DNA of 64,000 bases from Clostridium sp. CAG:411 (GTDB lineage Bacteria; Bacillota; Clostridia; Lachnospirales; Lachnospiraceae). This document shows positions 1 through 50,041 of this stretch, piece by piece. The notes beneath the pieces were generated by a model. The model had not been told where the DNA came from. It made no database searches and saw only the letters and a program-made list of their open reading frames with translations. Each line of letters opens with the position of its first letter. Position 1 is the stretch's first letter. Position numbers and translations under genes: made by a program. The stretch covers positions 45,534 through 109,533 of the forward strand of contig FR899730.1 in the NCBI GenBank assembly GCA_000437275.1, given 5' to 3'.

Positions 1-275
1 TCCAAAACAGAAACGCGATTATTGATTATGTTGAGCAGTGGGGATACTTTCTCCACTGGGTAAGAATCCATTGTATTTAGCATTTCTACCGCATTTTTTA
101 TTGCTGTAATAGGGGAACGTAAGTCATGGGAGATATTGGAAAACATTTGGGTTCGTGCATTTTCCTCATCCAATAGACGTTTATGTGTCTTGGCAAGTTC
201 CAGATTCGCAATGATTAATTCAGCAGATAGTTCTTCTACAGATAAATCTGGAGTTTCAAATTTCTTTTTATTCAT
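1..275 (-). CDS. Histidine kinase, N-terminal part; the gene runs off the window edge. It starts directly at a HisKA dimerisation/phospho-acceptor motif, with no transmembrane sensor domain.
   Basis: My reverse-strand translation from an ATG at 275-273 reads MNKKKFETPDLSVEELSAELIIANLELAKTHKRLLDEENARTQMFSNISHDLRSPITAIKNAVEMLNTMDSYPVEKVSPLLNIINNRVSVL. It contains the H-box SHDLRSP, and GAAAGGA sits 9 nt upstream as an RBS. The gene is absent from the ORF track because there is no stop inside the window. Confidence 0.6.
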   Translation of the reverse strand, partial: MNKKKFETPDLSVEELSAELIIANLELAKTHKRLLDEENARTQMFSNISHDLRSPITAIKNAVEMLNTMDSYPVEKVSPLLNIINNRVSVL

Positions 276-390
276 AAATAGTATCCTTTCTATCCTAGCT
301 GTTCGTTATTACAAAGAATATCGTTCGGCAGGAATTTGGTTGTATGCGGATAGTTATAAAAATAGTATGTAGGATTGCATGTTGCCTGAC

Positions 391-1083
391 TTATTTGGAT
401 TTAAAACAGTAGCCTTTCGACCACACACTTTCAATCAACGTAGAGCAACCTGTATAAGTTTCTAATTTTTTTCTAAGACGACTTACATTAACCATGATGG
501 AACGTCTGTCACTGTCAAGGTAAGAACCCCATACTGCCGTTCCAATTTCTTCAAAGGTACAAGTTTTACCAACATTCTGCGCTAAAAATGAAAGTAGGTC
601 AAACTCTTTATTCGACAGTGGGATATCGGTTTCCTGCCAAGTAACCTTATGAGCCAGCAAATGGATACAAAGGGGCGGAAACTCCAAAACAGAAGAATTG
701 TCCTCCTTTGCTTTCATTTGTTGGCTTCGTCTGATATTTACCTCAATACGTGCCGCCAGTTCTCTTAAACTGTAAGGTTTTATCATATAATCATCTGCAC
801 CAGATAATAATCCAGTGATTCGATCTTCTTCTGTAACTTTACCAGATAAAAAGATAATAGGAACATCAGAAAAACTGCGAATGGTTTTGCAAAAAGTAAA
901 GCCATCTGTTTCGGGTAACATAACATCCAAAATGATACAGGAGAACGTGTTACTTTTGATATATCGCATTGCTTCTTTGGCAGAAGCGGCAATAGCAACT
1001 AAGTATCCTGCATCTTCAAAATAGGATTTGTTCATTTCTAACACTTCAGTATCATCATCAACCAATAAAATCTTATGCTTCAT
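391..1083 (-). CDS. OmpR/PhoB-family response regulator (receiver plus winged-helix DNA-binding domain)
   Basis: The N-terminus reads MKHKILLVDDD...ILDVMLPETDGF...SGADDYMIKP, which gives the receiver acid pocket and K. The C-terminal ~100 aa have the winged-helix pattern (LS.KEFDLLSFL...VSRLRKKL). The gene lies just upstream of the histidine kinase on the same strand. Confidence 0.85.
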   Translation of the reverse strand: MKHKILLVDDDTEVLEMNKSYFEDAGYLVAIAASAKEAMRYIKSNTFSCIILDVMLPETDGFTFCKTIRSFSDVPIIFLSGKVTEEDRITGLLSGADDYMIKPYSLRELAARIEVNIRRSQQMKAKEDNSSVLEFPPLCIHLLAHKVTWQETDIPLSNKEFDLLSFLAQNVGKTCTFEEIGTAVWGSYLDSDRRSIMVNVSRLRKKLETYTGCSTLIESVWSKGYCFKSK

Positions 1084-1148: not shown

Positions 1149-1177
1149 TTGACAATTGTTTTTGCAAAAATTATAAT
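1149..1177 (+). promoter_or_regulatory. Consensus sigma-70 promoter (TTGACA-N17-TATAAT) driving the lasso-type cluster
   Basis: TTGACA sits at 1149-1154, followed by a 17-nt spacer and TATAAT at 1172-1177. The first CDS starts about 95 nt downstream at 1272. Confidence 0.5.
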
Positions 1178-1271
1178 AAAAAGGATTATAGTTATTTTTA
1201 GTTTTAACGAAAATACGTGTCCGTTTGCTTCAAGCGGCAGGAAAAATGTAAAACTTATGGGGGAATGAAAA

Positions 1272-3167
1272 ATGTCTGCTGTGTATGGAATGTGTCATTG
1301 GGAAAATTTGGAATATGAATCACAAATAAAAAAGATGGAATCCGCATTATATCCATATAAAATTGATCGTTATAATACGGAGGAGATGGGGATTGCCGAA
1401 TTTGGTTGTGGCATTCAGCATTTTACGCAAGAGGCAGAACGTGAAATATTGCCATTTAAAGATGAGAGACAGGGAATACTTATGACTGCAGATGTTGTTT
1501 TGGACAATCGTGCAGAATTGATGCGTCAATTAGGGGTCAGTAACCCTGGTGTAGCAGACGGAGAACTGGTATATTTGGCATACTCAAAGTGGGGAGAAGA
1601 ATTTGTAAAACTACTTCGTGGCGTGTTTGCAATTGCCATTTATGATATGCAGAAAAATATTTTGTTTCTGTATACGGACCATACAGGAAGTAGAGCCGTA
1701 AATTATTACAATGGAAAAGAAGGTTTTGCCTTTGCTACGACATTTTCTTGTATTTTAAAAGCATTTCCTCAGATCAGATATAATGAAAAATGGATTACTG
1801 CCTGTGAAGCAACAATTTCACCAGACATGGAAATCTTTAGGGAGATTACACCCTATGAAGGTATCTTTCAACTGGAGGCAGGAACTTATCTGAGAGTTTC
1901 TGAGCATGAATGGGAGAAAAAAGTGTATTGGGAACCCTTGAAGAAAAAGGAAAAACTACCATTTGAGGATACCCACTGCCGAGAGATTTTCCGTTCGACA
2001 TATGAACAGTGCGTAAAAGATGTGTTGCGTTCCAGAAAAAATACAGGAATAATGGTCAGCAGTGGATTAGACTCTACAGGGGTAGCCTGTATTGCTGCAA
2101 ATCAACTGAATAAAGAAGGGAAAAAACTGTATGGATATACTTCCGTTCCAGATGGGGAGTTTCAAAGCAAAGATAAGTATTCAATTGCCAATGAAGCTTG
2201 GGGAGCAGAAGAAATTAAAAAGCAACATGCCAATTTTCAGGTGAATTTAGTTCCCTGTGCTGGAATGGACGGTTTGACAAAGTTAGAAGAATTGACACCG
2301 TTATTAGAGATTCCTACGAAATCAGCCCCAAATGTTATGTGGATTGATGAGATTTACAAACAGTGTCGGGAGCAGGAATGTTATATTTTGTTAAAAGGGC
2401 AAAATGGGAATGCGACAGTTTCTTATGGAAAAATATTAACGAATTTGTTTTACCAGATGAAGCATTTTCATTTTCTTAAGGCTGGAAAAGAGAGAAAGGC
2501 ATTTGCAAAGATGATGGGAGTATCGGAAAAAAGGATTATAAAAGCGTTTTTTAAAGAATGGATACAAAATCATCAAACAGAAGACTATGTGGATAGAACC
2601 ATATTACATAATGATTTAGTTGAAAAATATGAAATAAATAATGCAATCAATGCTATGGTTCATAACTCAGGAGGCGGGATCTTAGATAATGAAGTGCAGA
2701 TGCGCAATTTTATGTTTGATTATATTAACTTTGCACAACTAGGGCTTTACGATACTCGTTTTTCTCTGATACATGGAGTGTTAGTGAGAGATCCAACAAA
2801 GGATAAAAGAATGATAGAGCTTTGTCTTAGTCTTCCAATCGAGTGTTTTGTTCATAATGGAGTGGAACGCAGGCTTTCAAGAGAATATATGCAGGGAATT
2901 ATTCCAGATAAAATTACAGGGATGATTCATCATAGAGGAGAACAAAGCGCAGATTTTATGGAACGAATGAAGCGAAATAAAGAAAAAAATAATGAACAAA
3001 TTGAGAGACTATGTAAAAATAAGCAATTATTCTCCTATATAGATCAACAAAAACTGGAAGTTTTATTGCATAAGTATGAGCAGAAGGAAAAACAGAGGGA
3101 TGAATTTTCGCTGTATGCATTATTGCTCAATGTATGTTCATTATCCATTTTCTTGGAAAAAAGATAG
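1272..3167 (+). CDS. Asparagine-synthetase-like protein; putative lasso peptide cyclase (C protein)
   Basis: The 631-aa product has the PP-loop ATP-pyrophosphatase motif SSGLDS in MVSSGLDSTGVACIAAN, which is typical of the AsnB family. The N-terminal glutaminase region is divergent, as in lasso cyclases. Genes for a PqqD-like protein, a transglutaminase-like B2 protein and a small precursor ORF lie on the same strand. Confidence 0.7.
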   Translation: MSAVYGMCHWENLEYESQIKKMESALYPYKIDRYNTEEMGIAEFGCGIQHFTQEAEREILPFKDERQGILMTADVVLDNRAELMRQLGVSNPGVADGELVYLAYSKWGEEFVKLLRGVFAIAIYDMQKNILFLYTDHTGSRAVNYYNGKEGFAFATTFSCILKAFPQIRYNEKWITACEATISPDMEIFREITPYEGIFQLEAGTYLRVSEHEWEKKVYWEPLKKKEKLPFEDTHCREIFRSTYEQCVKDVLRSRKNTGIMVSSGLDSTGVACIAANQLNKEGKKLYGYTSVPDGEFQSKDKYSIANEAWGAEEIKKQHANFQVNLVPCAGMDGLTKLEELTPLLEIPTKSAPNVMWIDEIYKQCREQECYILLKGQNGNATVSYGKILTNLFYQMKHFHFLKAGKERKAFAKMMGVSEKRIIKAFFKEWIQNHQTEDYVDRTILHNDLVEKYEINNAINAMVHNSGGGILDNEVQMRNFMFDYINFAQLGLYDTRFSLIHGVLVRDPTKDKRMIELCLSLPIECFVHNGVERRLSREYMQGIIPDKITGMIHHRGEQSADFMERMKRNKEKNNEQIERLCKNKQLFSYIDQQKLEVLLHKYEQKEKQRDEFSLYALLLNVCSLSIFLEKR

Positions 3168-3192
3168 GGAGATAATATATGGGGGAATGTGT

Positions 3193-4092
3193 ATGAAATA
3201 TTATAAAATTTTTGGCTATGTAGTGAAAAGTGCGTTTGAGATACAGGAAGCAGTAGAAGTTAAGGAACAGGACTGGGATGTACTTGTCGAGTTGGGGCTT
3301 CCTCCTACAGAAGTAAAAGATGCACTCCAAAAAGGGGAGACTTGCAGAGTAGACCGTAAAATAGCTTGGTTTTACATGCGAGAGATAGGTATGTATTATA
3401 TTGAACAGGGAAGGCATATTATAATATGGAAAGAAAGTGAACAGATGACAACACTGGTTCGAAACTATCATTTATTAGGTTCTGCATTTTCTTTACTTAT
3501 GTTTCAAAGAGAAGTGATCCCTATGCATAGTGGAACCGTGGAGATTGCTGGAAAGGCGGTTGTGTTGCTCGGTGGTTCGGGAGCAGGAAAGTCAACCACA
3601 AGTATGCTCTTAAGGCAGCAGGGAGGAAAGTTTGTTTCCGATGATATTACACCATTGAAATTGAAAGAGGGAAAGGTGATGGTATCTCCTGCGTTTCCTG
3701 TACAAAGATTATGTAGAGATGCTGCACTTCGTCAGGGGATTGATTTGGAAGAACTGACCTATATCAATCCAGAGAAGGATAAATATGCCATGTTTTTGAA
3801 GGAAGGCTATTGTGTGAATGATATGCCATTGGGGATGATTGTAGAATTAACTTTGACCTATGGAAAAGAGCTGCAATTTAGAGAAATAACAGGCATTGAG
3901 AAATTGAAACTGGTCTATCGAAACGTGTTTCAGGGCTTTATGCTTGATGTAATGGGAATTACAGAAAAAATGCACAGGACCGTTTATGAGGTGGCACAGC
4001 AGATTCCTGTTTATCAGGTAATTCGCCCGGTAGAGGGATATTATTCTGATCAGGTTGTGGACTGGATAACAACAATGTTACAAAATTGTTAG
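3193..4092 (+). CDS. HPr kinase/phosphorylase C-terminal-domain-like kinase; putative RiPP precursor kinase (K)
   Basis: The Walker A motif GGSGAGKST is followed by DDITPL, which is the arrangement seen in HprK C-terminal domains. I moved the start from the track's 3076 to the ATG at 3193 (MKYYKIF...), which has GGGGGA 6 nt upstream. The track ORF otherwise overlaps the upstream gene by about 90 nt. Confidence 0.6.
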   Translation: MKYYKIFGYVVKSAFEIQEAVEVKEQDWDVLVELGLPPTEVKDALQKGETCRVDRKIAWFYMREIGMYYIEQGRHIIIWKESEQMTTLVRNYHLLGSAFSLLMFQREVIPMHSGTVEIAGKAVVLLGGSGAGKSTTSMLLRQQGGKFVSDDITPLKLKEGKVMVSPAFPVQRLCRDAALRQGIDLEELTYINPEKDKYAMFLKEGYCVNDMPLGMIVELTLTYGKELQFREITGIEKLKLVYRNVFQGFMLDVMGITEKMHRTVYEVAQQIPVYQVIRPVEGYYSDQVVDWITTMLQNC

Positions 4093-4160
4093 AAAGGTTT
4101 ACAAAGGAATGAAAGAGTGCTACCCTATAGAAGAAGAAAAGATGAATAGGAGGAATTGAA

Positions 4161-4340
4161 ATGAAGAAGTGGAATAATCCTGAAGTGGTTTCATTGGATA
4201 TGAGCTGTACAGCACAGGGAAAACATATTTGTGAAAAGTTTGATGAGATTAGAGTGGATCAGAATGGTAATTATTGGGCAGGTTTCTGCAGTGGTGAAGA
4301 CTCTAAGCCTACTCCATCTGGAGAAGTTATTGTTAAATAA
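4161..4340 (+). CDS. Candidate RiPP (lasso-type) precursor peptide, 59 aa; not in the supplied ORF track because it is under 60 aa
   Basis: My translation is MKKWNNPEVVSLDMSCTAQGKHICEKFDEIRVDQNGNYWAGFCSGEDSKPTPSGEVIVK. AGGAGG sits 6 nt upstream of the ATG. The N-terminus fits the MKKx(3-4)Px(4)LD...T leader pattern I recall for Firmicutes lasso leaders, with Thr at position 17. The ORF lies between the kinase and the B1/B2 genes, and a hairpin follows it. Confidence 0.5.
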   Translation: MKKWNNPEVVSLDMSCTAQGKHICEKFDEIRVDQNGNYWAGFCSGEDSKPTPSGEVIVK

Positions 4341-4368
4341 TTGCAAATAACATAGGACTGATACAAAA

Positions 4369-4400
4369 GGCCGCAGCATATAATGTTGTGGTCTTTCTTT
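4369..4400 (+). terminator. Imperfect hairpin plus U-rich tract after the precursor ORF; possible attenuator that raises the precursor-to-enzyme transcript ratio
   Basis: GGCCGCAGCA (4369-4378) pairs with TGTTGTGGTC (4384-4393) over 10 bp with 3 G-U wobbles, and TTTCTTT follows. Confidence 0.3.
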
Positions 4401-4506: not shown

Positions 4507-4534
4507 TTGCAATTATCCCAAAAAAAAGTATAAT
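4507..4534 (+). promoter_or_regulatory. Possible internal sigma-70 promoter (TTGCAA-N16-TATAAT) ahead of B1/B2
   Basis: TTGCAA at 4507-4512, a 16-nt spacer, and TATAAT at 4529-4534. Confidence 0.3.
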
Positions 4535-4622: not shown

Positions 4623-4901
4623 ATGATTAAGAGAGAGGGAAGGGTCAAGATTAAAAATATGCCAAACGTAACAGAGTTGGCAGGGGAAAAGGTTATGGTA
4701 GACTTTACGCATGGAAAGTATTTCATGCTCAAAGGTGTTGGAAATGATATATGGGAAATGCTTGAGGATGAGATAGAGGTAGATTCCATAATCGAAAGAT
4801 TATTGCAAGAATATGAAGTAGAGGAAGAACAATGTGTAGGTTCTACAATTAAATTTTTAGAACAATTAGAAGAACTGGAATTTATAGAGGGAATTGTATG
4901 A
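4623..4901 (+). CDS. PqqD-like RiPP recognition element (lasso B1 protein)
   Basis: The 92-aa acidic protein has the pattern ...VDFTHGKYFMLKGVGNDIWEML...IIERLLQEYEVEEEQCVGSTIKFLEQLEELEFIEG, which is the classic PqqD/RRE signature. Its stop overlaps the B2 start by 4 nt (ATGA), which indicates translational coupling. Confidence 0.8.
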   Translation: MIKREGRVKIKNMPNVTELAGEKVMVDFTHGKYFMLKGVGNDIWEMLEDEIEVDSIIERLLQEYEVEEEQCVGSTIKFLEQLEELEFIEGIV

Positions 4902-5326
4902 ATCTAGTCAAATACATAAAATACAATAAAAATCGTAAGATTACGTTGGAAGCTTGGATTTTTTGTATGTGGTATCGATTTGTGATATTTCATATTCCAA
5001 TGAAATTTTTGGAAAAACACTTAGGGGTTCGAGATGGGGAAAGTCCTATGGAAGTGCAAAGATGTGATTATTATTGGGCAACGAGAGTTTCCTATGAGGT
5101 GAACCGAATTGCAGATAAAACACCATGGGACAGTAAGTGCTTTGTAAGAGCATTGGCAGCTAGAAGAATACTAAAACGTAGAAATGTAAAGACTACATTA
5201 TACTTAGGTGTAGGAATGGAAGATGGAAAGCAGATGATTGCACATGCGTGGCTTCGATGTGGTTCTTTTTATGTAACCGGTGGAACTGGTGAAGAGTTTG
5301 CCATGGTCGCAAAGTTTAGAAATTGA
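4898..5326 (+). CDS. Transglutaminase-like cysteine protease (lasso leader peptidase B2)
   Basis: The 142-aa product has a Cys...His arrangement, CFVRALAARRIL...GVGM...AHAWL, that is characteristic of B2 proteins. The gene is coupled to B1. Confidence 0.8.
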   Translation: MNLVKYIKYNKNRKITLEAWIFCMWYRFVIFHIPMKFLEKHLGVRDGESPMEVQRCDYYWATRVSYEVNRIADKTPWDSKCFVRALAARRILKRRNVKTTLYLGVGMEDGKQMIAHAWLRCGSFYVTGGTGEEFAMVAKFRN

Positions 5327-5347: not shown

Positions 5348-5464
5348 GTATTATGATAAAATGACAAATAAACAGATTAAGATGCAGGGAGAAAAATGGG
5401 TTCCTTGATAAGCGGACGGTTCTGTTATTGAGAATATATTCATGAGTGAAAGGACAGAGGATTT

Positions 5465-6403
5465 ATGAATTTATATATACGGAGGAAAAAAGAAAGAAAA
5501 GTAAGTATGCTTGTGATTTTGTTGTTTTTTATAAGTATATTTAGTGGATGCATTTGGGGAAAGTTCCCTAAAACTGTATATGCAGCAGGTAATCGTATTG
5601 TTATTGATTCTTACAATATTGAAAAAGGAGATTTTACTCTGGGTTCTACAGCGACCATTGCTTTTAAATTAAAAAATATAGGTGGTTCTGTTAATATGAA
5701 AAATATTTATATTCAAATGAGTTCTAATAGTGGAATTACACCTGTATATGGAGAAAGCAATCAAAAATATGTAGATATGCTGGATGCAGGCAGAACTGTG
5801 GAAGTGGTGTTTAAGGTAGATGTGCCTACTACTATTGAGACAGAAAAGGCAGAAGTAATGTTAAAAATAGAATATGAAAATGCAAAAGGTGAGGACAAAT
5901 CTAATCAGGCTACGGTATATATACCAATCAAAAATACAGGTGAATTGGAAATAAACAATGTATCCGTTGCGGACAGTGCAAAAGTAGGAGCAAAAACATT
6001 AATCAGTGTAAGTTATGCAAATGGCAGCGATATAACCTTGAGAGATGCGGTAATAAAGATAGAAGGAAACATAGAGGATGAGGGAACTTCTGTGGAACTT
6101 GGAAATATAGAAACAGGTATTTCTAAATATAAAGATATGTACGTTACTTTTACAAAAACAGGGGAACAACCGGTAGAGTTAACCATATCTTATAAAGATG
6201 CTGAAGGAAAGACCATTACCAAAGAAGTATGCAATGAGACGGTAAACGTAATGGCAGCAGATCAGGTAATAGAAGATACGGATGATAATACACAGGTACA
6301 AACAAACGACAAATTGAAAAAAAATATTTTAAAAATCCTTGTTTTATTCGCTATTGTTGGAGTGTGTGTTGGTATTTTTAGAGATTGGAAGAAAAGAGAA
6401 TAA
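5465..6403 (+). CDS. Membrane-anchored surface protein with tandem beta-sandwich-like domains; function unknown
   Basis: The N-terminus has a basic stretch and a hydrophobic segment (RRKKERKVSMLVILLFFISIFSGC). The C-terminus has a TM anchor and a basic tail (ILKILVLFAIVGVCVGIFRDWKKRE). The middle is rich in beta-strand-like alternating residues. Confidence 0.35.
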   Translation: MNLYIRRKKERKVSMLVILLFFISIFSGCIWGKFPKTVYAAGNRIVIDSYNIEKGDFTLGSTATIAFKLKNIGGSVNMKNIYIQMSSNSGITPVYGESNQKYVDMLDAGRTVEVVFKVDVPTTIETEKAEVMLKIEYENAKGEDKSNQATVYIPIKNTGELEINNVSVADSAKVGAKTLISVSYANGSDITLRDAVIKIEGNIEDEGTSVELGNIETGISKYKDMYVTFTKTGEQPVELTISYKDAEGKTITKEVCNETVNVMAADQVIEDTDDNTQVQTNDKLKKNILKILVLFAIVGVCVGIFRDWKKRE

Positions 6404-6472
6404 TTGGTATACGATAGTTTAAAATACACCCAGAGAAGGAATACCAAGGTGGATAAAGGAGGAATGCCATTT

Positions 6473-7138
6473 ATGGAAATGAAGATAAATATAAAGCGTT
6501 GTTTTTATGAATTGTGGAAAAAAAAGAAGCTGATTGCATTAATTGTTCTTTTAAGCTTTTTAGTAGGCATATACATGATGTTAGACGTGGAGGAAGTAGG
6601 AAATTATTCAGCAACCGCATCCATTTATAGTATGCTTAATTATGGAACGGATGAGGGAACTTCTAGTAGTCAGAAGACTGGGCTTGATGAGTTTTCGGAA
6701 GTAGTAGGAAGTTCTAATGTTGCCAAAAGAGCTGTGGCGATGTTAGATATTGAGTGGATTACAGAGGCGAATATACAGTCGATGTACAATATATCCACCA
6801 GTGGAAACTTTTTATATGTATCTACCTATTCAAATGATAAGAATATTGCAGTAAGTGTGGCAAATGCAGTGGCAGAAGCTTTTGTGGTAGAGTATAAAAA
6901 CTTAACAGGATTAGAAAATGTGCAGGTGTTTGAAAAGGCAGACCATGCCACTTATTATAGTGGAGATGCTACAAATCGAAAATTGACATTGATTATTTAT
7001 ACTGGGGTAGGCTTCTTTTTGATTTGTGTGTTAGTGGTGCTTCGCACGATATTTTCAGCTAAGGTACAAGATTATGGAGAATGTACGTTAGATGGAACGA
7101 TAGAACTTCTGGGTGTGATACCGGAACAGGAAGAGTAA
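6473..7138 (+). CDS. Polysaccharide co-polymerase (Wzz/CpsC/CapA-like chain-length determinant, PCP2b type)
   Basis: Two TM segments flank an extracytoplasmic domain of about 150 aa, and the gene sits immediately upstream of the CpsD-like gene. I moved the start to the ATG at 6473, which has AAAGGAGG 9 nt upstream. Confidence 0.55.
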   Translation: MEMKINIKRCFYELWKKKKLIALIVLLSFLVGIYMMLDVEEVGNYSATASIYSMLNYGTDEGTSSSQKTGLDEFSEVVGSSNVAKRAVAMLDIEWITEANIQSMYNISTSGNFLYVSTYSNDKNIAVSVANAVAEAFVVEYKNLTGLENVQVFEKADHATYYSGDATNRKLTLIIYTGVGFFLICVLVVLRTIFSAKVQDYGECTLDGTIELLGVIPEQEE

Positions 7139-7150
7139 GGAGGATTTAAA

Positions 7151-8014
7151 ATGAGTAATAAAACACTTCTGACGGTTTCTCTACCAGAGAATAGGCAGGT
7201 GGCAGATGAATATGACAAAATTGTAGTAAAAATGTATTTGCAACACCAGCATAATATGCAGAAATGCAAAGAGAGACAGCAGGATAATGATGTTATTTGT
7301 GAGCAGAACTGTTCTACATTTTTAATTTGTGGAACAGACCCTTCTGTTGGAACGAGCAGTGTAGCGTTACATTTGGCAGTAGGTTTGGCAAAATCAGGAA
7401 AACATGTGCTTCTTTTAGACATAGATATGAGAAGCAACAGACAAAAGAAGCTTGTGGGAAAAGATTGCGAACATACATTGGCAAATTACCTGATGGACGA
7501 ATGTGCATTAGACGAGGCTATCGTTGAAACAACAATAGAGCATATGGATTTTATATCTGGGGGGATTGCGGTAGATCCAGTGCAGCTTTTGTGTTCCGCA
7601 AGAATGAAAGGTTTTTTTGAAATTATTAAAAAGGAATATGATATGATATTGATGGATGTTCCTTCCATGGGGGCTTCGGCAGATGCAACTGCAGTTATGA
7701 ATTATTCAGATCAAATTATTCTGGTGGCTGCACCCTATAAGACATACAAAAAGCAGTTGATAGAAAGCTATGAGACGTTTCAAAAATATGGGGGAAATTT
7801 GCTTGGCGTTGTTGTCAATTGTGTGGACCGTTACGGTTATAAAGATTATATGAGAAATGCAGGTTACTATACAGAACACCAAAAGGAAACTTTGTTGGGA
7901 AAAATAAAGAGGAAGCTTGAAAAAAAGCAGCAACAAGAGAAGCCAAAGGAAAAAAAGACGGAAGAAAGAAAAGTAGAGAAGAAAAAAGAAAATAAAAAGG
8001 GTCAGAAAAAATAG
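7151..8014 (+). CDS. CpsD/CapB-like BY-kinase homolog with a degenerate Walker A and no C-terminal tyrosine cluster; probable pseudokinase
   Basis: The region ICGTDPSVGTSSVALHLAVGLAKSGKHVLLLDIDMRS aligns to the CpsD P-loop (GEGKST...LLIDAD), but the Walker A lysine is replaced by Thr, giving GTSS. Walker A' (LLLDIDMR) and Walker B (ILMDVPS) are retained. The C-terminal tail is K/E-rich (EKKQQQEKPKEKKTEERKVEKKKENKKGQKK) and has no Tyr. Confidence 0.55.
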   Translation: MSNKTLLTVSLPENRQVADEYDKIVVKMYLQHQHNMQKCKERQQDNDVICEQNCSTFLICGTDPSVGTSSVALHLAVGLAKSGKHVLLLDIDMRSNRQKKLVGKDCEHTLANYLMDECALDEAIVETTIEHMDFISGGIAVDPVQLLCSARMKGFFEIIKKEYDMILMDVPSMGASADATAVMNYSDQIILVAAPYKTYKKQLIESYETFQKYGGNLLGVVVNCVDRYGYKDYMRNAGYYTEHQKETLLGKIKRKLEKKQQQEKPKEKKTEERKVEKKKENKKGQKK

Positions 8015-8040
8015 AGTCAAGCATAGGGGTGAGAAAATTT

Positions 8041-9291
8041 ATGAATGCAGATGTGAAATATTTGCTTTGTTTATTAAAGAGCGTTTTGTATAATGAGACG
8101 CCACCAGTTCCTACCGAAGAAAATGATTGGGATAATATTTTTGTAGCGGCAGGAGCTGGTGAGATTCTTACTTTATTATATAAAAAGATAGAAGAATTGC
8201 CGTTGGATAAACAACCAGATGCAGAAAAGATGATTTGGTTGAAAAATTTTAGCATGCAGACGGGAATGAAAAAATTACAATGCTATGATTTATTAGCACA
8301 ATTATTACAAGAAGCAGAAAAAAGAGACATAAAAGTGATTGTTTTTAAAGGTCCGATTTTAGCAACACTTTATCCAGAGCCGTTGCTTCGTAATTCTTGC
8401 GATTTGGACATTTATGTGGAACCAAAAGATGTAGCGGCTATGGAAAAGTTATTAGTTTCACTAGGCTATGAAAAGAATATCAAACATTCCAAAGAATGTG
8501 TGCCTGTATATGTTTATAGCAATATCCTTATGCTTGAGGTACATTGCAGATTATATGAAGATTATACAGGAAAACGAATTGATCTGTTAGAAGCCATGGA
8601 CTTGACGAGAGAGGACACCAGGATGCAGGTGAATGCCTGCGGGCTTGATGTTGTTACGTTAGGGTATGAGCAACAGCTCGTGTTTTTGATATTTCATTTA
8701 GCGAAGCATATTTCGTATAATGGTTGTACCCTAAAGACAATTGCAGATATTGTATTATATATCAATACATATATAAAGGATATTGATAAAGTCGCTTTTT
8801 GGAACAAAATGAAGCAGTTAAAATATGAGACATTTTGTAGAACGTTGTTTAGCATAGGCTGTTATTATTTCGGTATGACGAAAGAGATTTTTGTGGACAA
8901 TTCGTACAGTGAAAATATTGCAGTATCTATGATGCAGCAATTGTATTACACGGGAATATTAAAGTCAAATTTAGAAAAAAAGAAAGATGACCGAAGGGCG
9001 GCATCAATCGCATTTCAATCGGTGTATGGAAAGGAAGATAAGAAGGTCAGCAAGGGACGTATTTGGTTAAAAACCTTGTTTCCAAGCAGTAAAGATTTAT
9101 CGTTTCGATATATGTATGCCAGAAAACATCCTGCATTAGTGTGGGTTGCATGGATTCATCGTGCGTGTAACCAACTGACGATTCGTTTTGGAAATCAGGA
9201 TGTGGAACAGCTTAATATGGCTGTAGATGTAAAACTTGCCAACCAAAAATTATCTTTATTAAAGGATTTAGATTTAGCACGAAAAGATTAG
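8041..9291 (+). CDS. Uncharacterised nucleotidyltransferase-family protein (NTP_transf_5-like)
   Basis: This call rests on overall resemblance of the ~415-aa sequence (...IKVIVFKGPILATLYPEPLLRNSCDLDIYVEPKD...) to the NTP_transf_5 (PF14907) family, recalled from memory; I have not checked the catalytic motif. I put the start at the ATG at 8041, which has GGGGTGA upstream. Confidence 0.4.
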   Translation: MNADVKYLLCLLKSVLYNETPPVPTEENDWDNIFVAAGAGEILTLLYKKIEELPLDKQPDAEKMIWLKNFSMQTGMKKLQCYDLLAQLLQEAEKRDIKVIVFKGPILATLYPEPLLRNSCDLDIYVEPKDVAAMEKLLVSLGYEKNIKHSKECVPVYVYSNILMLEVHCRLYEDYTGKRIDLLEAMDLTREDTRMQVNACGLDVVTLGYEQQLVFLIFHLAKHISYNGCTLKTIADIVLYINTYIKDIDKVAFWNKMKQLKYETFCRTLFSIGCYYFGMTKEIFVDNSYSENIAVSMMQQLYYTGILKSNLEKKKDDRRAASIAFQSVYGKEDKKVSKGRIWLKTLFPSSKDLSFRYMYARKHPALVWVAWIHRACNQLTIRFGNQDVEQLNMAVDVKLANQKLSLLKDLDLARKD

Positions 9292-44803: not shown

Positions 44804-47800
44804 GTGAGACAGCTTATTGAAAGAATAAAAATATGCTATATTTTGGGAGTATGTGTAGCAACTGTATTATTGAGCGGAAAAGTCATTCATGCAGCAGTAA
44901 ATCAGCAGAATACGGGGACGGAAAAGGTGGCAGTGGACAAGACTGTGTCCATTGCAGATACACAAGAGTATAAGAATATGGATTACTCTTTTATGAAAAC
45001 ATTTCAATATGGCAGTGTAGTAAAGGCTTCGAAAGAATTTGATACCGTTGAGGATATGAAAAAAGCTTCTATAAAAAAAGGAAGCTATGTTCGTACAAAA
45101 GGGTATTATGCGGATGGAGATAATGGGGCAGCATGTTATCTAATTGCAGAAAAGCAGGAAACGGGAGGTATCAAATTAGAGAACGGTTTGTATGCGAACA
45201 TTCAACCAGATACCTATACTGATAACAACGGGGAAAAATGGGTCGTTGGAAATGTTCTTCAATATGGAGCGAAGGCAGATGGAAAGCAGGAAGATGAAGT
45301 AGCCATTAACAACGCAATTAAAAGTATTGGTACATTTACAAATGAGAAAGATTCAACTGGATATGAATGTGAACGTGGACTTATTTATATGCCTGCAGGA
45401 GAGTATAAGTGTGCTAATACGATTCGACTGGGATACAGCAATGTAAATCTGGTAGGAGACGGAGCAGATACGGTACTGTTTACAGACAATGATTATAGAG
45501 ATAAGGAAGGCTACGCGGAATTCTTTTTTGAAGTTTGGGGAGCCAATCATACTTTTATAGCTAATTTTCAAATTGAAGCAAGAGAAGTGGATTTGTATCA
45601 TTATATGCGACAGTTTGTAGTGCTTTATAGTGAGCAGGTGTATCTTTATCAGGTGAATCTGTTAATTCCGCAAAGTACCTATTCTTCCTATTATTTTGAA
45701 GACAAACAGTATTCAAATTTTTGCTGTTATACGGGAAATAAGTTTGTTACCGTAGATGGTTGTAAAATGGAACAGATGAGTGGTACTTATCGTGGTGCCA
45801 ATGTTGGTGTGTTGGATATATGGTCTGGCGGAGAAGAAAATATTACTATTATGAATTGTGATTTCTATGGAAATGCCAGAGATGAGCAGTTTGGATTTTT
45901 CAGTAAAGACGATGAAAATGCATCGGTAAAGCATATCAATTTTATCAACAATACCATTCATTCTGTACAGTTAAAGTATCCCGATATTATTGGAACAAGA
46001 ACGATGTGCTTTTCGGTGGCATATGCAGATTCCAAAAATGTAGAGAATATCCGAATTGCAGGAAATCATTTTATTTGTGAAACAGATTCCAAATTTATGA
46101 CGTTTGGAACCGTAAAAAACTGTGTGGTGGAAAACAACATAATTGAAGTGAAATGTACCTATCAGACTTGGTCTATGGTATTTGATTCTAGTAATGAAAA
46201 TGCAGAGGATATTTTAATACAAAAGAATCAATTCTTTTTAACCAGTGATTATGGAATTGGAAAAGGAAATCTTACAGGTGGAAATCTTACATTAAAAGAA
46301 AATCGCATCTTTTCGGATGTGGAATTGGCATTTGGTATTTTGGGACCTGAAATACATGGAAATGAGATTATCTTTTTGAAGAATATGAGCAAGCTGGCAA
46401 GCAATGCCAATTGTACAGATAATAAGATTTATTTGTATAAAGGACTTGGAAATATCGGAACAAATAAAAGGCAAATTGTAAATTATGGTGGGGATAATAC
46501 TGCAAGTTACAATTTTAGTGGAAATGAGATTTATGACTATGAGCGTGTGGACAAGCTGGTGGTATTTCAGTCGTTGATTATGCTTGATGGAGATTTAAAA
46601 ACATTAAACGTGACAAACAACAAATACTATATGCCAAATTCCAGATTTTTATCAAGTGAGTACAGTGAATCCATTCCATATAAAGATACCAAGGGTACCT
46701 ACTATAAAAATAGTATTTTTCGAAAGAAATCGGGAAGTTATGGAAAAATTAACGTATTGAATAATACATTTCAAATGGTAGAATTAGAAAAGTCCGATAG
46801 TACATTTACATATTCAGGAAATCAATGTTTAGCACCTGAAGCTGATTTGACAGAGCAACTATGCAGTACAGTGAAAATTTTAAAGGATGGGGAAGAAGTT
46901 ACAAATATTACTGCTACAGAGGATAGTGTGGATTTAAGTGCTGAAACATTTGTTGTTGTAAAACAGGATTCGGATGGAAATGTGATAGAAGAGAAGAAAG
47001 TTTCAGGAAAGAAGATACGCTGGTATACATCTGTAGAAAAAATTGCTACCGTTTCTACATCGGGAAAAGTTACGCGAAAGCTGTATGGAGATGTAGCTGT
47101 TTATGCGGTTCCTTTGGATGGCAGTGGAGTATATGGAAAGTGTGTATTACATTTTGCAAGACAGAAAGCAGATTCCATTGCTTTTGCACAAAAGAAAATT
47201 GAATTACAATCTGGATTAAAATATTATATGGAATATACGGTATTGCCAAAAGGAGCAACTCAGGAATTGATTTGGACAACTTCAGATAAGAAAGTTGCTA
47301 CTGTGGATCAAAATGGAACCATTACGGCTATAAGTGAAGGAAATGCCACAGTAGAAGGAACTTCTGTAGAAAATCCAGAATTAAAGGCACGTATTAATGT
47401 TAAAGTCTCTAAAGTGACGGTAAAGAAGATTTCGTTGAATGAGACGGTACTCGATGTGGACTATTCCAAAATAGGAACAACAAAGCGGTTGAAGGTATCA
47501 AAATATATTCCTGAAAACGCAACCAATCAGGGAATCAAACAATGGAAATCCAGTGATGAAGAGGTTGCAAAGGTAGATCAAAATGGTGTTGTAACTTTTG
47601 TTGGAGGAGGAAAGGCAACGATTTCAGCGTATTCTATGGATATGAGTTGTGCGGGAACTTGTAAAATATATGTACATCTTCCTGCGGTTTCCAATTTAAA
47701 GGTGAAGGAATATACCGATGATAGAGTTGTGCTGAATTGGGACGAAACGAAAAAAGCAGATGGTTATTATGTATATCAATGGAAGCAAAGCACAGCAGAA

Positions 47801-50041
47801 TGGGTTGTATTAAATGATGGAAATCCAGTGACAGAGACTTCCTTCGAAATAGGAAATTTAGCTTCTAATACAGATTACACCTTTTCTGTCAGAGCATATA
47901 ATGCAGGATGGGAAACAGGAGAGCGCGTTGTTTATGAAAGTCAGGATAAAAAAGTATCTGTAAAGACCTTAGCATATACACCGGTTACGAAAATATGGAG
48001 CAGTCATGAAAATGTAGGAATCCCGTTAAATACTACAGTTACTTTAACTTGCACATATAGCCCGAACACTGCAAATTATAATAATTTAAAAGCGTCTTTT
48101 GCGATAAAGAATAAGGCGATTGCATCTATTGAAGAAATAAAGGAAGTAGAAAAAGGAAAGTATTCCGTTACGATAAAAGGGCTTGCTTACGGAACTACTG
48201 TGTTGACATTTGCAATCAATGATGCATGGGGATTAAAGAAAGAAATTCCAATCGGAGTGTTGGCAAAGCAGTCACTTCCAGAGGAGTATATCACGGTGAC
48301 GGGTTCCGCAATAAAAGCGACCATTCATTTTAAAGGATTTGATAATGAAAAGGATTTGCTACAGGAAAAGGCGATTACCGGGTATATGATTCGAAGAACA
48401 GAATCCATTGAATTTACAGATGTAAAATATATACCAGCGGATGGTTCAAACGAATATCTCTGGGAGGATACGGACGTCATGCAGGGAAAAAAATATTCGT
48501 ATACGGTGACTCCTTGCTTGAAAGCGGAGGATGCGTATTTCCTTGGATATGGAAATGGATACCATGGCGTTACCATTCCACAGTCTGTAGAGGCAGAAAA
48601 ACTTTCCATGGAGAAAGAAATTTATGTAATACCTTTAGGAGAGAAAAAGAAAATTCATGCGAAAATAGAACCAGCAGAGGCAATGATTGATAGTTTAAAT
48701 TGGCGTTCCGAGAATGAAGGAGTTGCTACTGTTATACAGTTGCAGAAGGAACAGGCGGTTTCGGGAACTGATTATGCTACAGTAACAGGTTGTATTACTG
48801 GTGTAACAAAAATATATGCAGAATTAAAAGAAAACTCTAAATTACAGACAGCAGCTACGGTAATCATTACACCTGGAAAGGTAAAAAATGTGAAAAAGGC
48901 ATCAGATACGGATTCGGTAAGTTTGCTTTGGAATGCGGTAGATAATGCAGATGGGTATTATGTATATCGTTGGAACAAGTCAGCACGTTCCTGGGAGTTA
49001 GTTGGTGATGTGCAAGAAAATAGTTTTACGGATAAAAAGCTGGAAAGTAGCAAGATGTATCAATATAAGGTTTCGGCCTATTATCAATACAATGCCAGTA
49101 AGTATGAAGGAACGGTAAGTGAAGAGGTGATTGCAACTACAGAAGCCTTATTGGCAGACGATTTTAAGGTAAAAGCAACTGGTTATGAAGGTGTATATGA
49201 TGGTAAGCTACATCATGCAGTACAAGTTACTGGTACAAAGGAAGGAGATAGTATAAGCTATAGCGAAGATGGAAAAGTTTGGGATCGTTATGTGCCAACA
49301 GTTAAAAATGTATTGGATAGTAAGGTAATTTATGTATCTATTACAAGAGACGAAAAAAGCTATTATATGAGTGTTATATGTAGGGTATCTCCGAAATCTA
49401 TGAAGGATGCACAGTTTCGACTAGAACATACACAATATAATTGGGACGGAAAAGAACATCGTCCAAAAGTGGTGATGGATGAAAATATTGCTCCAGAAGA
49501 GTACCAGGTGACGTATCAGGGCGAATGTAAGAATGTTGGAAAAGGAATCGTCATTGTACAAGGAAAGGAAAATTATAAAGACAGTTGTATCTTAAATTAC
49601 CAAATTAAACTGATTCAGGGAAAGACATACATACATTCTGGATATAAGTATAAGATTACAAGTAAAACTACTGTTAGGATGATGGGGGCGACAAACACAC
49701 GTAAGACTACCATTCTAGTTCCTAATGTGGTTAATTTAGGTGGCACAAAGTTAAAAGTAACAGAAATTGGTGCAGCCGCCTTCAAAAAATATAAAAAACT
49801 TACTTCTATTAAAATAGGAAGTAATGTAACAAAGATTGGTGCACAGGCCTTTGCTGGAGATACGAAATTAAAGAAATGTGTATTCCTAAATGCTACCATT
49901 AAAACAGTAGGAAAAAATGCATGGAAGGGAATTAGCAAGAATGCCAGTTTCTTTGTACCAAAAAAGGGAATAAAATGTTATCAAAAGAAATTAACGAAAA
50001 AGACTGGCTTTACAAAAAAAATGAAGATTAAAAGAAATTAG
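44804..50041 (+). CDS. Giant secreted surface protein (1745 aa): signal peptide, a Pectate_lyase_3-like beta-helix, several Big_2 and FN3 domains, and a C-terminal BspA-type leucine-rich-repeat (LRR_5-like) segment
   Basis: Signal peptide ILGVCVATVLLSGKVIHA. The beta-helix start VLQYGAKADGKQEDEVAINNAI...IYMPAGEYKCAN is paralogous to the 39520 protein. Big_2-like blocks include ATVSTSGKVTRKLYGDVAVYA. FN3-like blocks include NLKVKEYTDDRVVLNWDETKKADGYYVYQWK and VKNVKKASDTDSVSLLWNAVDNADGYYVYRW. The C-terminus reads ...IGAAAFKKYKKLTSIKIGSNVTKIGAQAFAGDTKLKK.... I see no LPXTG motif, SLH domain or choline-binding anchor. Confidence 0.6.
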   Translation: MRQLIERIKICYILGVCVATVLLSGKVIHAAVNQQNTGTEKVAVDKTVSIADTQEYKNMDYSFMKTFQYGSVVKASKEFDTVEDMKKASIKKGSYVRTKGYYADGDNGAACYLIAEKQETGGIKLENGLYANIQPDTYTDNNGEKWVVGNVLQYGAKADGKQEDEVAINNAIKSIGTFTNEKDSTGYECERGLIYMPAGEYKCANTIRLGYSNVNLVGDGADTVLFTDNDYRDKEGYAEFFFEVWGANHTFIANFQIEAREVDLYHYMRQFVVLYSEQVYLYQVNLLIPQSTYSSYYFEDKQYSNFCCYTGNKFVTVDGCKMEQMSGTYRGANVGVLDIWSGGEENITIMNCDFYGNARDEQFGFFSKDDENASVKHINFINNTIHSVQLKYPDIIGTRTMCFSVAYADSKNVENIRIAGNHFICETDSKFMTFGTVKNCVVENNIIEVKCTYQTWSMVFDSSNENAEDILIQKNQFFLTSDYGIGKGNLTGGNLTLKENRIFSDVELAFGILGPEIHGNEIIFLKNMSKLASNANCTDNKIYLYKGLGNIGTNKRQIVNYGGDNTASYNFSGNEIYDYERVDKLVVFQSLIMLDGDLKTLNVTNNKYYMPNSRFLSSEYSESIPYKDTKGTYYKNSIFRKKSGSYGKINVLNNTFQMVELEKSDSTFTYSGNQCLAPEADLTEQLCSTVKILKDGEEVTNITATEDSVDLSAETFVVVKQDSDGNVIEEKKVSGKKIRWYTSVEKIATVSTSGKVTRKLYGDVAVYAVPLDGSGVYGKCVLHFARQKADSIAFAQKKIELQSGLKYYMEYTVLPKGATQELIWTTSDKKVATVDQNGTITAISEGNATVEGTSVENPELKARINVKVSKVTVKKISLNETVLDVDYSKIGTTKRLKVSKYIPENATNQGIKQWKSSDEEVAKVDQNGVVTFVGGGKATISAYSMDMSCAGTCKIYVHLPAVSNLKVKEYTDDRVVLNWDETKKADGYYVYQWKQSTAEWVVLNDGNPVTETSFEIGNLASNTDYTFSVRAYNAGWETGERVVYESQDKKVSVKTLAYTPVTKIWSSHENVGIPLNTTVTLTCTYSPNTANYNNLKASFAIKNKAIASIEEIKEVEKGKYSVTIKGLAYGTTVLTFAINDAWGLKKEIPIGVLAKQSLPEEYITVTGSAIKATIHFKGFDNEKDLLQEKAITGYMIRRTESIEFTDVKYIPADGSNEYLWEDTDVMQGKKYSYTVTPCLKAEDAYFLGYGNGYHGVTIPQSVEAEKLSMEKEIYVIPLGEKKKIHAKIEPAEAMIDSLNWRSENEGVATVIQLQKEQAVSGTDYATVTGCITGVTKIYAELKENSKLQTAATVIITPGKVKNVKKASDTDSVSLLWNAVDNADGYYVYRWNKSARSWELVGDVQENSFTDKKLESSKMYQYKVSAYYQYNASKYEGTVSEEVIATTEALLADDFKVKATGYEGVYDGKLHHAVQVTGTKEGDSISYSEDGKVWDRYVPTVKNVLDSKVIYVSITRDEKSYYMSVICRVSPKSMKDAQFRLEHTQYNWDGKEHRPKVVMDENIAPEEYQVTYQGECKNVGKGIVIVQGKENYKDSCILNYQIKLIQGKTYIHSGYKYKITSKTTVRMMGATNTRKTTILVPNVVNLGGTKLKVTEIGAAAFKKYKKLTSIKIGSNVTKIGAQAFAGDTKLKKCVFLNATIKTVGKNAWKGISKNASFFVPKKGIKCYQKKLTKKTGFTKKMKIKRN

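Follow-up and report, generated by a model that had tools for sequence, protein, structure and literature searches.

The subject of this analysis is a small gene in a 64-kb stretch of contig FR899730.1 of the human-gut species Clostridium sp. CAG:411 (Lachnospiraceae), the whole stretch being referred to below as the window. The open reading frame (ORF) occupies positions 4161..4340 of the forward strand and comprises 59 codons from an ATG start; its translation is the one quoted in an earlier sequence-only reading, in which it was regarded as the precursor of a lasso peptide with an atypical core. That assignment holds, as the peptide carries a leader of the WxxP...L...T form and the ORF is conserved in syntenic clusters; the gene is backed by 34 homologues, synteny, the ratio of nonsynonymous to synonymous polymorphism (pN/pS), and deposited proteins. 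The gene had also been said to lie where a precursor is expected, and it is indeed flanked by an HprK-like kinase gene (approximately 3190-4092) and the B1/PqqD gene (4623-4901), with the cyclase gene upstream and the B2 gene downstream. A perfect AGGAGG ribosome-binding site (4148..4153, forward strand) precedes the ATG with a spacer of 7 nt, not the 6 nt given previously, which is a trivial correction. No competing small forward-strand ORF with a leader-like sequence was found in the interval between the kinase and B1 genes, and no second ORF with the leader motif in the whole 64-kb window, the other candidates being antisense or of low complexity. The gene has already been called in public records, without a function: identical proteins are deposited at NCBI as CDE44129.1 ("unknown [Clostridium sp. 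CAG:411]") and MEE0347056.1 ("hypothetical protein [Lachnospiraceae bacterium]"), and the identical peptide is present on 491 public contigs. Scans of the peptide against Pfam and NCBIfam assigned it to no family, and no curated precursor model covers it.

The genes for the cyclase C, kinase, precursor, B1, B2, and a PsmN-like nucleotidyltransferase, all on the forward strand, form a complete paeninodin-type lasso cluster. The lasso macrolactam cyclase (1272..3167; 631 amino acids, aa) is Asn-synthase-like, with matches to Pfam Asn_synthase and GATase_7 and to the NCBIfam model NF033535 (240 bits, E 4e-71, which is under the strict cutoff of that model). The HprK-like Ser kinase of the PadeK/PsmK type (3190..4092; approximately 300 aa) was recognized by Pfam Hpr_kinase_C (29 bits, E 7e-7, under the gathering threshold), and its matches to TIGR00679 and TIGR04352 are weak; it aligns with the HPrK/P structure 1jb1 across the P-loop and retains, in the same alignment, H113, K134, D151, and D152, the His-Lys-Asp-Asp set reported as the catalytic motif (PMC9266682). 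As listed, the kinase ORF has its start at 3076 and shares 92 nt with the cyclase gene; because the homologues measure 296-305 aa, the true start is probably Met39 or Met41 (3190 or 3196). B1 (4623..4901; 92 aa) is a PqqD-type recognition element (RRE) for peptides made by ribosomes and modified post-translationally (RiPPs), matching Pfam PqqD with an E value of 3e-17 and scoring 74 bits against a cutoff of 80 with NF033536 lasso_PqqD_Bac. B2 (4898..5326; 142 aa) is a transglutaminase-like leader peptidase (Pfam Transglut_core3) that scores 69 bits with the lasso B2 model NF033537, over its cutoff of 33, and retains the Cys (SKCF, C81) and His (AHAW, H116) motifs. The PsmN-like nucleotidyltransferase (8029..9291; 420 aa; Pfam NTP_transf_5, PF14907, E 3.5e-45) has a DLD motif at residues 125-127, and its gene is separated from that of B2 by three polysaccharide-export-type genes.

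Conservation of the precursor gene and its neighbours

A sequence search returned 34 close homologues with 51-100% identity, and a profile search covering 1.84 billion cluster representatives gave 61 matches at E<=1e-3, of which 57 are small peptides of 38-80 aa. In 14 orthologous genes, across which synonymous sites are almost saturated, pN/pS is 0.36 for the whole gene, with values of 0.21 in residues 20-44, 0.49 in the leader, and 0.52 over the 14 C-terminal residues. The homologues, the purifying selection, and the adjacency to a cognate cyclase and kinase exceed chance; the ORF is therefore a real, conserved gene under purifying selection. One allele, P0001, known from a single 4-kb contig in ENA, is 97% identical and carries F42L and S44G; this allele may exist in nature as a rare variant or may stem from faulty assembly.

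For synteny, 19 related loci were compared, L001-L007 being obtained from three homologues on their contigs and L008-L019 from a genome scan with one genome per GTDB species. All of them belong to Lachnospiraceae, including Waltera hominis CLA-AA-H183, a metagenome-assembled genome of Agathobacter, and Acetitomaculum ruminis DSM 5522. The sequence-only reading had proposed to look for a conserved small ORF in syntenic relatives, and it is present in 19/19 loci, which were fetched by peptide homology; in every one of them a cyclase of the same clade and an HprK-like kinase adjoin the peptide gene. Neither of the outcomes named in that reading as refuting, loss of this ORF or a different conserved small ORF in its place, was observed. 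The adjoining cyclases are 35-40% identical to that of the window (79-92% in L008 and L009), whereas second cyclases within the same loci show only 22-31% identity to it. Within the fetched stretches, B1 was found in 16/19, B2 in 11/19, NTP_transf_5 in 12/19, and an ABC exporter in 16/19 loci. Gene order and orientation vary between genera, so that common descent of a single block does not simply account for the linkage.

No ABC exporter is encoded in the 64-kb window, as judged by tblastn. In L008, whose peptide is 98% and whose cyclase is 92% identical to those of the window, the exporter gene (L008:1535-3208) is located upstream of the genes for the histidine kinase and the response regulator, and hence upstream of the stretch covered by the window; for this reason the exporter is treated as lying just beyond the left edge of the window, off-window rather than missing.

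Predicted leader, ring and phosphorylation site of the proposed lasso peptide

Residue counts were made on 98 unique relatives anchored on W..[P/A]x9T, and positions downstream of Thr17 are given as T+1, T+2, and so on. The inferred leader comprises residues 1-19 (MKKWNNPEVVSLDMSCTAQ; 4161..4217, forward strand), with WxxP, L12, and the invariant T17; W4, P7, L12, and T17 match the WxxP...L...T pattern known from paeninodin-like precursors of Bacillota. Paeninodin-like leaders are marked out by WxxP, and the RRE-binding motif has been defined as [Y/W]xxPx[L/V/I/F/A] (PMC13381572); the peptide contains it as W4-N-N-P7-E-V, with W4 and P7 at least 90% conserved in the family. On recounting, Thr17 at position -2 makes Gln19 the first core residue, and starting the core at Gly20 yields a ring from Gly1 to Asp9 and places Thr at -3, both as previously calculated. 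The core accordingly measures 41 aa from Gln19 and 40 aa from Gly20. The earlier description of a core of approximately 40 aa with two Cys residues and a terminal Lys is borne out by the translation: Lys59 is the last residue, and of the three Cys residues C24 and C43 are in the core and C16 is in the leader.

The family statistics point to the Gly20 start. T+1 is variable, and T+2 takes at least 11 different residues (Q58, H10, Y9, N7, K5, and others, including E, R, and F), whereas T+3 is Gly in 93, Ser in four, and Asp in one of the 98 members, and T+11 is Asp in 98/98, which the alignment anchor does not impose. Counted from Gly20, core position 1 is thus Gly or Ser in 97/98 and core position 9 is Asp in 98/98, in keeping with the Asp/Glu acceptor at core position 7-9 and the small or conserved first residue expected of a lasso peptide. 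A cut between Gln19 and Gly20 is favoured because a hypervariable T+2 followed by a near-invariant small T+3 is what -1 and +1 positions should show, and a nine-residue ring is favoured because the invariant Asp stands eight residues past T+3. The best-supported assignment would therefore be a leader of residues 1-19, cleavage at Gln19/Gly20, Thr17 at -3, and a macrolactam ring from Gly20 to Asp28 (core G1-D9; 4218..4244, forward strand), which would include Cys24. Glu29 was considered as the ring acceptor and rejected, T+12 being Glu in only 64/98 members compared with Asp in 98/98 at T+11. The cleavage point had been called odd; Thr at -3 is favoured by the statistics, and the oddity is a property of the whole family and not peculiar to this gene.

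The remainder of the core falls into two parts. The predicted lasso loop and tail, Glu29-Ser44 (EIRVDQNGNYWAGFCS; 4245..4292, forward strand), is the most conserved stretch, holding Cys43 and Ser44 as well as residues E29, R31, V32, D33, Q34, N35, G36, and W39, which are invariant in the close homologues. It is followed by a variable C-terminal extension of 15 residues, Gly45-Lys59 (GEDSKPTPSGEVIVK; 4293..4337, forward strand). Within the family a conserved Ser is found at core position 24-26, corresponding to Ser44 (core Ser25) in the window. Among 91 unique members that were classified, this Ser is the last residue in 14, whose cores of 24-26 aa are of a size common for lasso peptides; in 67/91 the Ser is followed by Gly and 3-33 further residues, and 10/91 are fragments or variants. 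The clusters of the Ser-ended members P0047 and P0089 contain the same NTP_transf_5, kinase, and cyclase genes, and the longer P0089 locus additionally shows B1, B2, and an exporter. In another locus, L020, one kinase and one cyclase accompany tandem precursors ending in ...NIWASFQS and ...NLWVSFPSGAEQ, and the Lachnospira multipara precursors of Sabino et al. align residue for residue and stop at the conserved Ser. The length of the core, which had appeared anomalous, is real; by alignment, it is a normal lasso module of 25 aa to Ser44 plus a family-specific extension of 15 aa. In the close subfamily this extension has an invariant Gly45 (35 close homologues), a nearly invariant Gly54, and a DS[KN]P...G[ED]V.V pattern; across the wider family it is not conserved and its length ranges from 3 to 33 aa.

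The peptide lacks the C-terminal Ser of paeninodin-like precursors, ending in Lys with the homologous Ser44 15 residues inside. The lasso kinases PadeK, ThcoK, and PsmK phosphorylate a C-terminal Ser, and the known lasso HprK-like kinases act on linear precursors (PMC9266682); PsmN adds a hexose to the phospho-Ser (PMC6993621). Ser44 aligns as the homologue of that C-terminal Ser and, since it is aligned with the C-terminal Ser of 14 relatives carrying the same kinase and transferase genes, is likely the phospho-acceptor. An internal target is plausible by analogy because the kinases act on the linear precursor and because LppK, a related HprK-like kinase of RiPP biosynthesis, phosphorylates an internal Ser, S3 of LppA (PMC13381572). 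Of the two options left for the missing C-terminal Ser, an internal kinase target is thus the supported one. The atypical features are real and family-wide, and the family had already been predicted (PMC7533575).

The cysteine pair is narrower in distribution. The window, L008, L009/P0003, and P0001 have both Cys24 (core C5, within the inferred ring) and Cys43 (core C24, beside Ser44), and all other members lack both. A disulfide had been envisaged from the two core Cys residues; one of the ring-to-tail, class III type is possible in this clade, and the pair also fits a fold in which the lasso module returns with its end to the ring. Since Cys24 and Cys43 are confined to the window clade, a disulfide common to the whole family is rejected.

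Given the observed gene, synteny, and residue conservation, the ORF is best regarded as encoding the precursor of a paeninodin-type, kinase-associated lasso peptide of a human-gut Lachnospiraceae species (probability roughly 0.7), for which we infer every chemical step as follows. Briefly, B1 would bind the WxxP leader, the HprK-like kinase would phosphorylate Ser44 on the linear precursor, B2 would remove residues 1-19 by cutting between Gln19 and Gly20, and the cyclase would link the Gly20 amine to the Asp28 side chain to give a nine-residue ring threaded by the tail. The NTP_transf_5 enzyme would probably add a sugar to the phosphoserine, as PsmN does, and the off-window ABC exporter would export the product. 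After export, the Cys24-Cys43 disulfide could form in the window clade, and residues 45-59 would be either kept, giving a 40-aa lasso peptide, or trimmed to the phosphoserine.

Several points weigh against this reading. Thr at -3 contradicts the penultimate-Thr (-2) rule, which a passage of PMC10368454 describes as holding in the lasso precursors found hitherto, and Thr17 itself is invariant. Verified paeninodin-type cores start at T+2, and in the Bacilli relatives the Thr-to-Asp spacing is 10, compared with 11 here (our count on Table 3 of PMC7533575). The characterized lasso kinases PadeK, ThcoK, and PsmK all modify a C-terminal Ser, and the rare P0001 allele, seen on a single contig, has Gly in place of Ser44. 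The kinase domain matches are weak, below the Pfam and NCBIfam cutoffs, and the exporter lies outside the window. The Cys pair goes back to one evolutionary event, which makes its co-occurrence weak evidence. Furthermore, the cleavage site, ring, threading, and phosphosite are deduced from the sequence, and no family member has been isolated.

Alternatively, B2 could make the canonical cut at Ala18/Gln19, leaving Thr17 at -2 and a ten-residue Gln19-Asp28 ring, which would be unprecedented. Besides the conserved penultimate Thr, W4 precedes position 19 by 15 residues, matching the W(-15) spacing in PbaA, and Gln19 is fairly conserved in the close subfamily. The Thr-to-Asp spacing is fixed at 11 in 98/98 members, and is still 11, by our own count, in published Butyrivibrio relatives with Gly at T+4, a constancy that a ten-residue ring fits too. 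Paralogues that share one B1/B2 pair with family members (L001, L004, L011, and L012) have an acidic T+10 and often no T+3 Gly; they would fit Thr at -2 with nine-residue rings of their own. However, the T+2 position, which would become core residue 1, admits K, E, R, Y, and F among its residues while T+3 is so nearly uniform; known lasso rings have 7-9 residues (PMC9266682), and the homologous paeninodin-type cyclases build nine-residue rings (PMC6993621). The canonical cut is accordingly considered unlikely, and cleavage before Gly20 is preferred.

With that cleavage retained, the mature product might be a 25-residue lasso peptide from which residues 45-59 are removed as a follower, exposing a C-terminal phosphoSer44 as in paeninodin. 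This is a tentative possibility with more to commend it than the canonical cut: 14 relatives end exactly at the conserved Ser, Ser-ended and Ser-Gly-tailed precursors stand in tandem behind one kinase and one cyclase, and Gly45, invariant in the 35 close homologues and with Gly after the Ser in at least 67/91 members, could mark a processing site. The wide range of tail lengths points the same way, host carboxypeptidases often trim lasso tails (PMC13352647), and lasso follower peptides exist, as a passage on triculamin indicates (bioRxiv 10.64898/2026.07.03.736388). By contrast, no peptidase for tail removal is encoded in the window cluster, the tail is constrained in the close subfamily (DS[KN]P...G[ED]V.V, G54, pN/pS 0.52), and related kinases can phosphorylate an internal Ser. 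A product that is never cyclized, that is, a linear (poly)phosphorylated and glycosylated peptide like the linear polyphosphorylated peptides (LPP), encoded beside lasso genes, is very improbable. LPP clusters do co-localize with paeninodin-like lasso clusters in capsule loci, share HprK, NTP-transferase, and RRE genes with them, and encode cores of similar size, 45 aa (PMC13381572). LPP precursors, however, have YxxP within a YxxPxVLxHQxIxFETxxS motif and depend on a SpI/SipW-like peptidase, whereas the window peptide has WxxP, and no signal-peptidase family match was obtained among the 39 window proteins scanned against Pfam. The peptide is the sole candidate substrate for the window cyclase and B2, the cognate cyclase clade accompanies it in every locus, and Gly1 and Asp9 are conserved, as a ring would demand; with no YxxP, no SpI peptidase among the proteins scanned, and a cyclase present, the linear form was rejected in favour of the lasso peptide.

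Related clusters, predicted expression signals and known systems

Several of the related loci are more elaborate than the window. L001, L004, L010, L011, L012, and L018 contain two to three sets of cyclase, kinase, and precursor with one B1/B2 pair. Their extra precursors (L001:2798-2971; L004:989-1189 and 5413-5616; L011:1713-1940, reverse strand, and 4150-4350; L012:4845-5027; L010:9700-9894, reverse strand; L018:3447-3599) belong to other families, all with a C-terminal Ser and mostly with an acidic residue at T+10, often without Gly at T+3, e.g., TAHNWTGIYRD... and TASTDMLGCFE.... Tandem duplicates of precursors of the present family stand behind one cyclase and one kinase at L011:8001-8586, L014:203-633, and L019:7983-8563. 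In L020, the pair of family precursors is followed by a third leader-bearing ORF (7234-7443), which differs from the others and is rich in Cys and Trp (MKNWKKPTIEEYDIKDTACDRGYSSWEP...GFFGKGWIW). L004 additionally encodes, on the reverse strand (1259-3307), a 682-aa fusion of an HprK-like kinase and an NTP_transf_5 domain, a domain arrangement that supports the notion that these two activities may act on the same substrate. The cluster of L006 (8126-16421) and L007 has two NTP_transf_5 genes, and no B2 was recognizable in these two loci within the fetched 9-10 kb or so on each side of the peptide gene. Pseudomycoidin can likewise be made without B1/B2. A subtilisin-like Peptidase_S8 protein of 664 aa is encoded directly upstream of the cluster of a Ser-ended member (L022:1471-3465 and L023:1330-3324).

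The window also contains putative expression signals. A sigma-70-type promoter sequence, TTGACA-17-TATAAT (1149..1177, forward strand), matches the consensus at 12/12 positions before the cyclase, kinase, and precursor genes, and a promoter-like site, TTGCAA-16-TATAAT (4507..4534, forward strand), matches at 10/12 positions before B1; both are consensus matches only. Past the precursor stop codon, folding predicts a 14-bp GC-rich hairpin followed by UUUCUUU (4366..4400, forward strand; dG -17.8 kcal/mol, z -3.45), which is a probable terminator or attenuator; a strict terminator scan did not list it. A GC-rich hairpin with a U-tract 3' of the precursor recurs in 13/15 related loci without sequence conservation, a pattern that fits the usual layout, in which a terminator or attenuator stands after the precursor gene. 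Divergent from the cyclase operon, an OmpR-type response regulator is encoded on the reverse strand (391-1083) next to a histidine kinase gene on the same strand that runs off the left window edge (the pair spanning window 1-1083). Since a homologous pair accompanies the peptide family in 7/13 distinct loci, within 8-10 kb of the peptide gene and with response regulators 48-93% identical, it is a candidate regulator of the lasso cluster.

Judged by its enzyme set and WxxP leader, the window system belongs to the paeninodin subfamily. Paeninodin (Paenibacillus dendritiformis C454) and pseudomycoidin (Bacillus pseudomycoides DSM 12442) are encoded with the same split B1/B2, Asn-synthase-like cyclase, and HprK-like kinase, pseudomycoidin also with an NTP_transf_5 gene (PsmN), and their precursors have a like short Bacillota-type leader (W/YxxP...L...T). 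Their nine-residue ring is a proven Ala1-Asp9 ring (PMC6993621), whereas that of the window peptide would be Gly1-Asp9, and a Ser approximately 23-25 residues into the core is (poly)phosphorylated, being also hexosylated in pseudomycoidin (PMC6993621, PMC9266682). Their cores start at T+2 (Ala1, Thr at -2), end at the phospho-Ser, and measure 23-24 aa; the window core would start at T+3 (Gly1, Thr at -3) and continues for 15 residues past the Ser. The two known peptides show no core sequence similarity to the window peptide, and their hosts are Bacilli rather than an anaerobic gut clostridial lineage.

Clear homologues were described by Sabino et al. 2020 (PMC7533575, Table 3), who reported LasA precursors in silico from rumen Lachnospira and Butyrivibrio. 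These authors placed Thr at -3, Gly at +1, and Asp at 8-9 and predicted core lengths of 21-42 aa, with a conserved Ser in the C-terminal region and kinase, nucleotidyltransferase, and glycosyltransferase neighbours. LasA of Lachnospira multipara (MKTWITPAVEELEIVETAQ followed by GKNIKPSFDELRVDANGNLWASFQS) shares with the window peptide a homologous leader, the TAQ/GK junction, the FDExRxDxNGNxWA(S/G)F core, and the Ser position. The L. multipara peptides tabulated there stop either at the Ser or four residues later, whereas the window peptide has 15 further residues and a clade-specific Cys pair; the LasA predictions are from the rumen and in silico only, the window peptide being from a human-gut species. 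A 2026 Hungate1000 survey likewise noted a [GA]x7D motif and a variable C-terminal region. The family is therefore not new, having been described bioinformatically since Sabino et al. 2020, and its novelty has to be toned down. The searchable literature yielded in-silico studies only and no experimental characterization of any family member.

Other systems share single traits with the window. LPP (Popov et al. 2026, PMC13381572) resembles it in having an RRE, an HprK-like kinase, and an NTP transferase within capsule or polysaccharide loci, together with a long core of 45 aa and a kinase acting on an internal Ser, and differs in its YxxP leader, SpI-type leader peptidase, lack of a cyclase, and phosphosite at core Ser3. 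The class III lasso peptides BI-32169 and 9401-LP1 have a disulfide between a ring Cys and a tail Cys (PMC9266682, PMC13352647), and the Cys residues of the window peptide are placed alike; those peptides are actinobacterial, of the 19-aa scale, and without a kinase, whereas in the present family the Cys pair is limited to one small clade and the disulfide is a prediction. Pandonodin (33 aa, with an 18-aa tail) and achromonodin-1 (30 aa) have an unusually long tail or loop and hold the current size records among characterized lasso peptides (PMC13352647); they are proteobacterial and without a kinase, and an untrimmed 40-aa window core would exceed both.

Polysaccharide context and significance

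The lasso genes head, and are interleaved with, a polysaccharide locus of approximately 40 kb (window 5465 to approximately 44500, forward strand). Between B2 and the PsmN-like gene, it encodes a 312-aa membrane protein (5465-6403), a Wzz/CpsC homologue (6404-7138), and a Tyr autokinase (7151-8014), all on the forward strand, and farther along glycosyltransferases (one GT1, at least nine GT2, and two GT-D), a pair of pyruvyl transferases, one Branch enzyme, four Acyl_transf_3 proteins, and a flippase-like protein. Where the locus ends, a 1745-aa protein is encoded (44804-50041, forward strand) that has pectate-lyase-like, Big_2, fn3, and BspA-type LRR domains and is probably a surface protein. 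Polysaccharide genes are found within 8-10 kb of the peptide gene in 9/13 distinct loci, and embedding in polysaccharide loci has been noted for related clusters (PMC13381572; PMC7533575). This embedding and the conserved two-component system suggest a cell-surface role rather than classic bacteriocin activity. A more specific proposal, that a phospho-lasso peptide of approximately 40 residues with the Thr(-3) junction has its Ser44 phosphate extended by the PsmN-like enzyme and the glycosyltransferase locus into a lasso-linked glycan or capsule component (or a primer or regulator), and is not a free antimicrobial, is speculative and would have to be rated improbable as a whole.

The window peptide comes from a common human-gut Lachnospiraceae species and represents a widespread lasso family with no product isolated, and its compact, single-precursor cluster is suited to testing the family. 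If the sequence-based model is true, the family breaks two rules with which genome-mining tools work, one placing Thr at -2 and the other expecting a C-terminal Ser where the cluster has a kinase gene. Retention of the tail would make the product, at 40 aa, larger than any known lasso peptide, the record being 33 aa.

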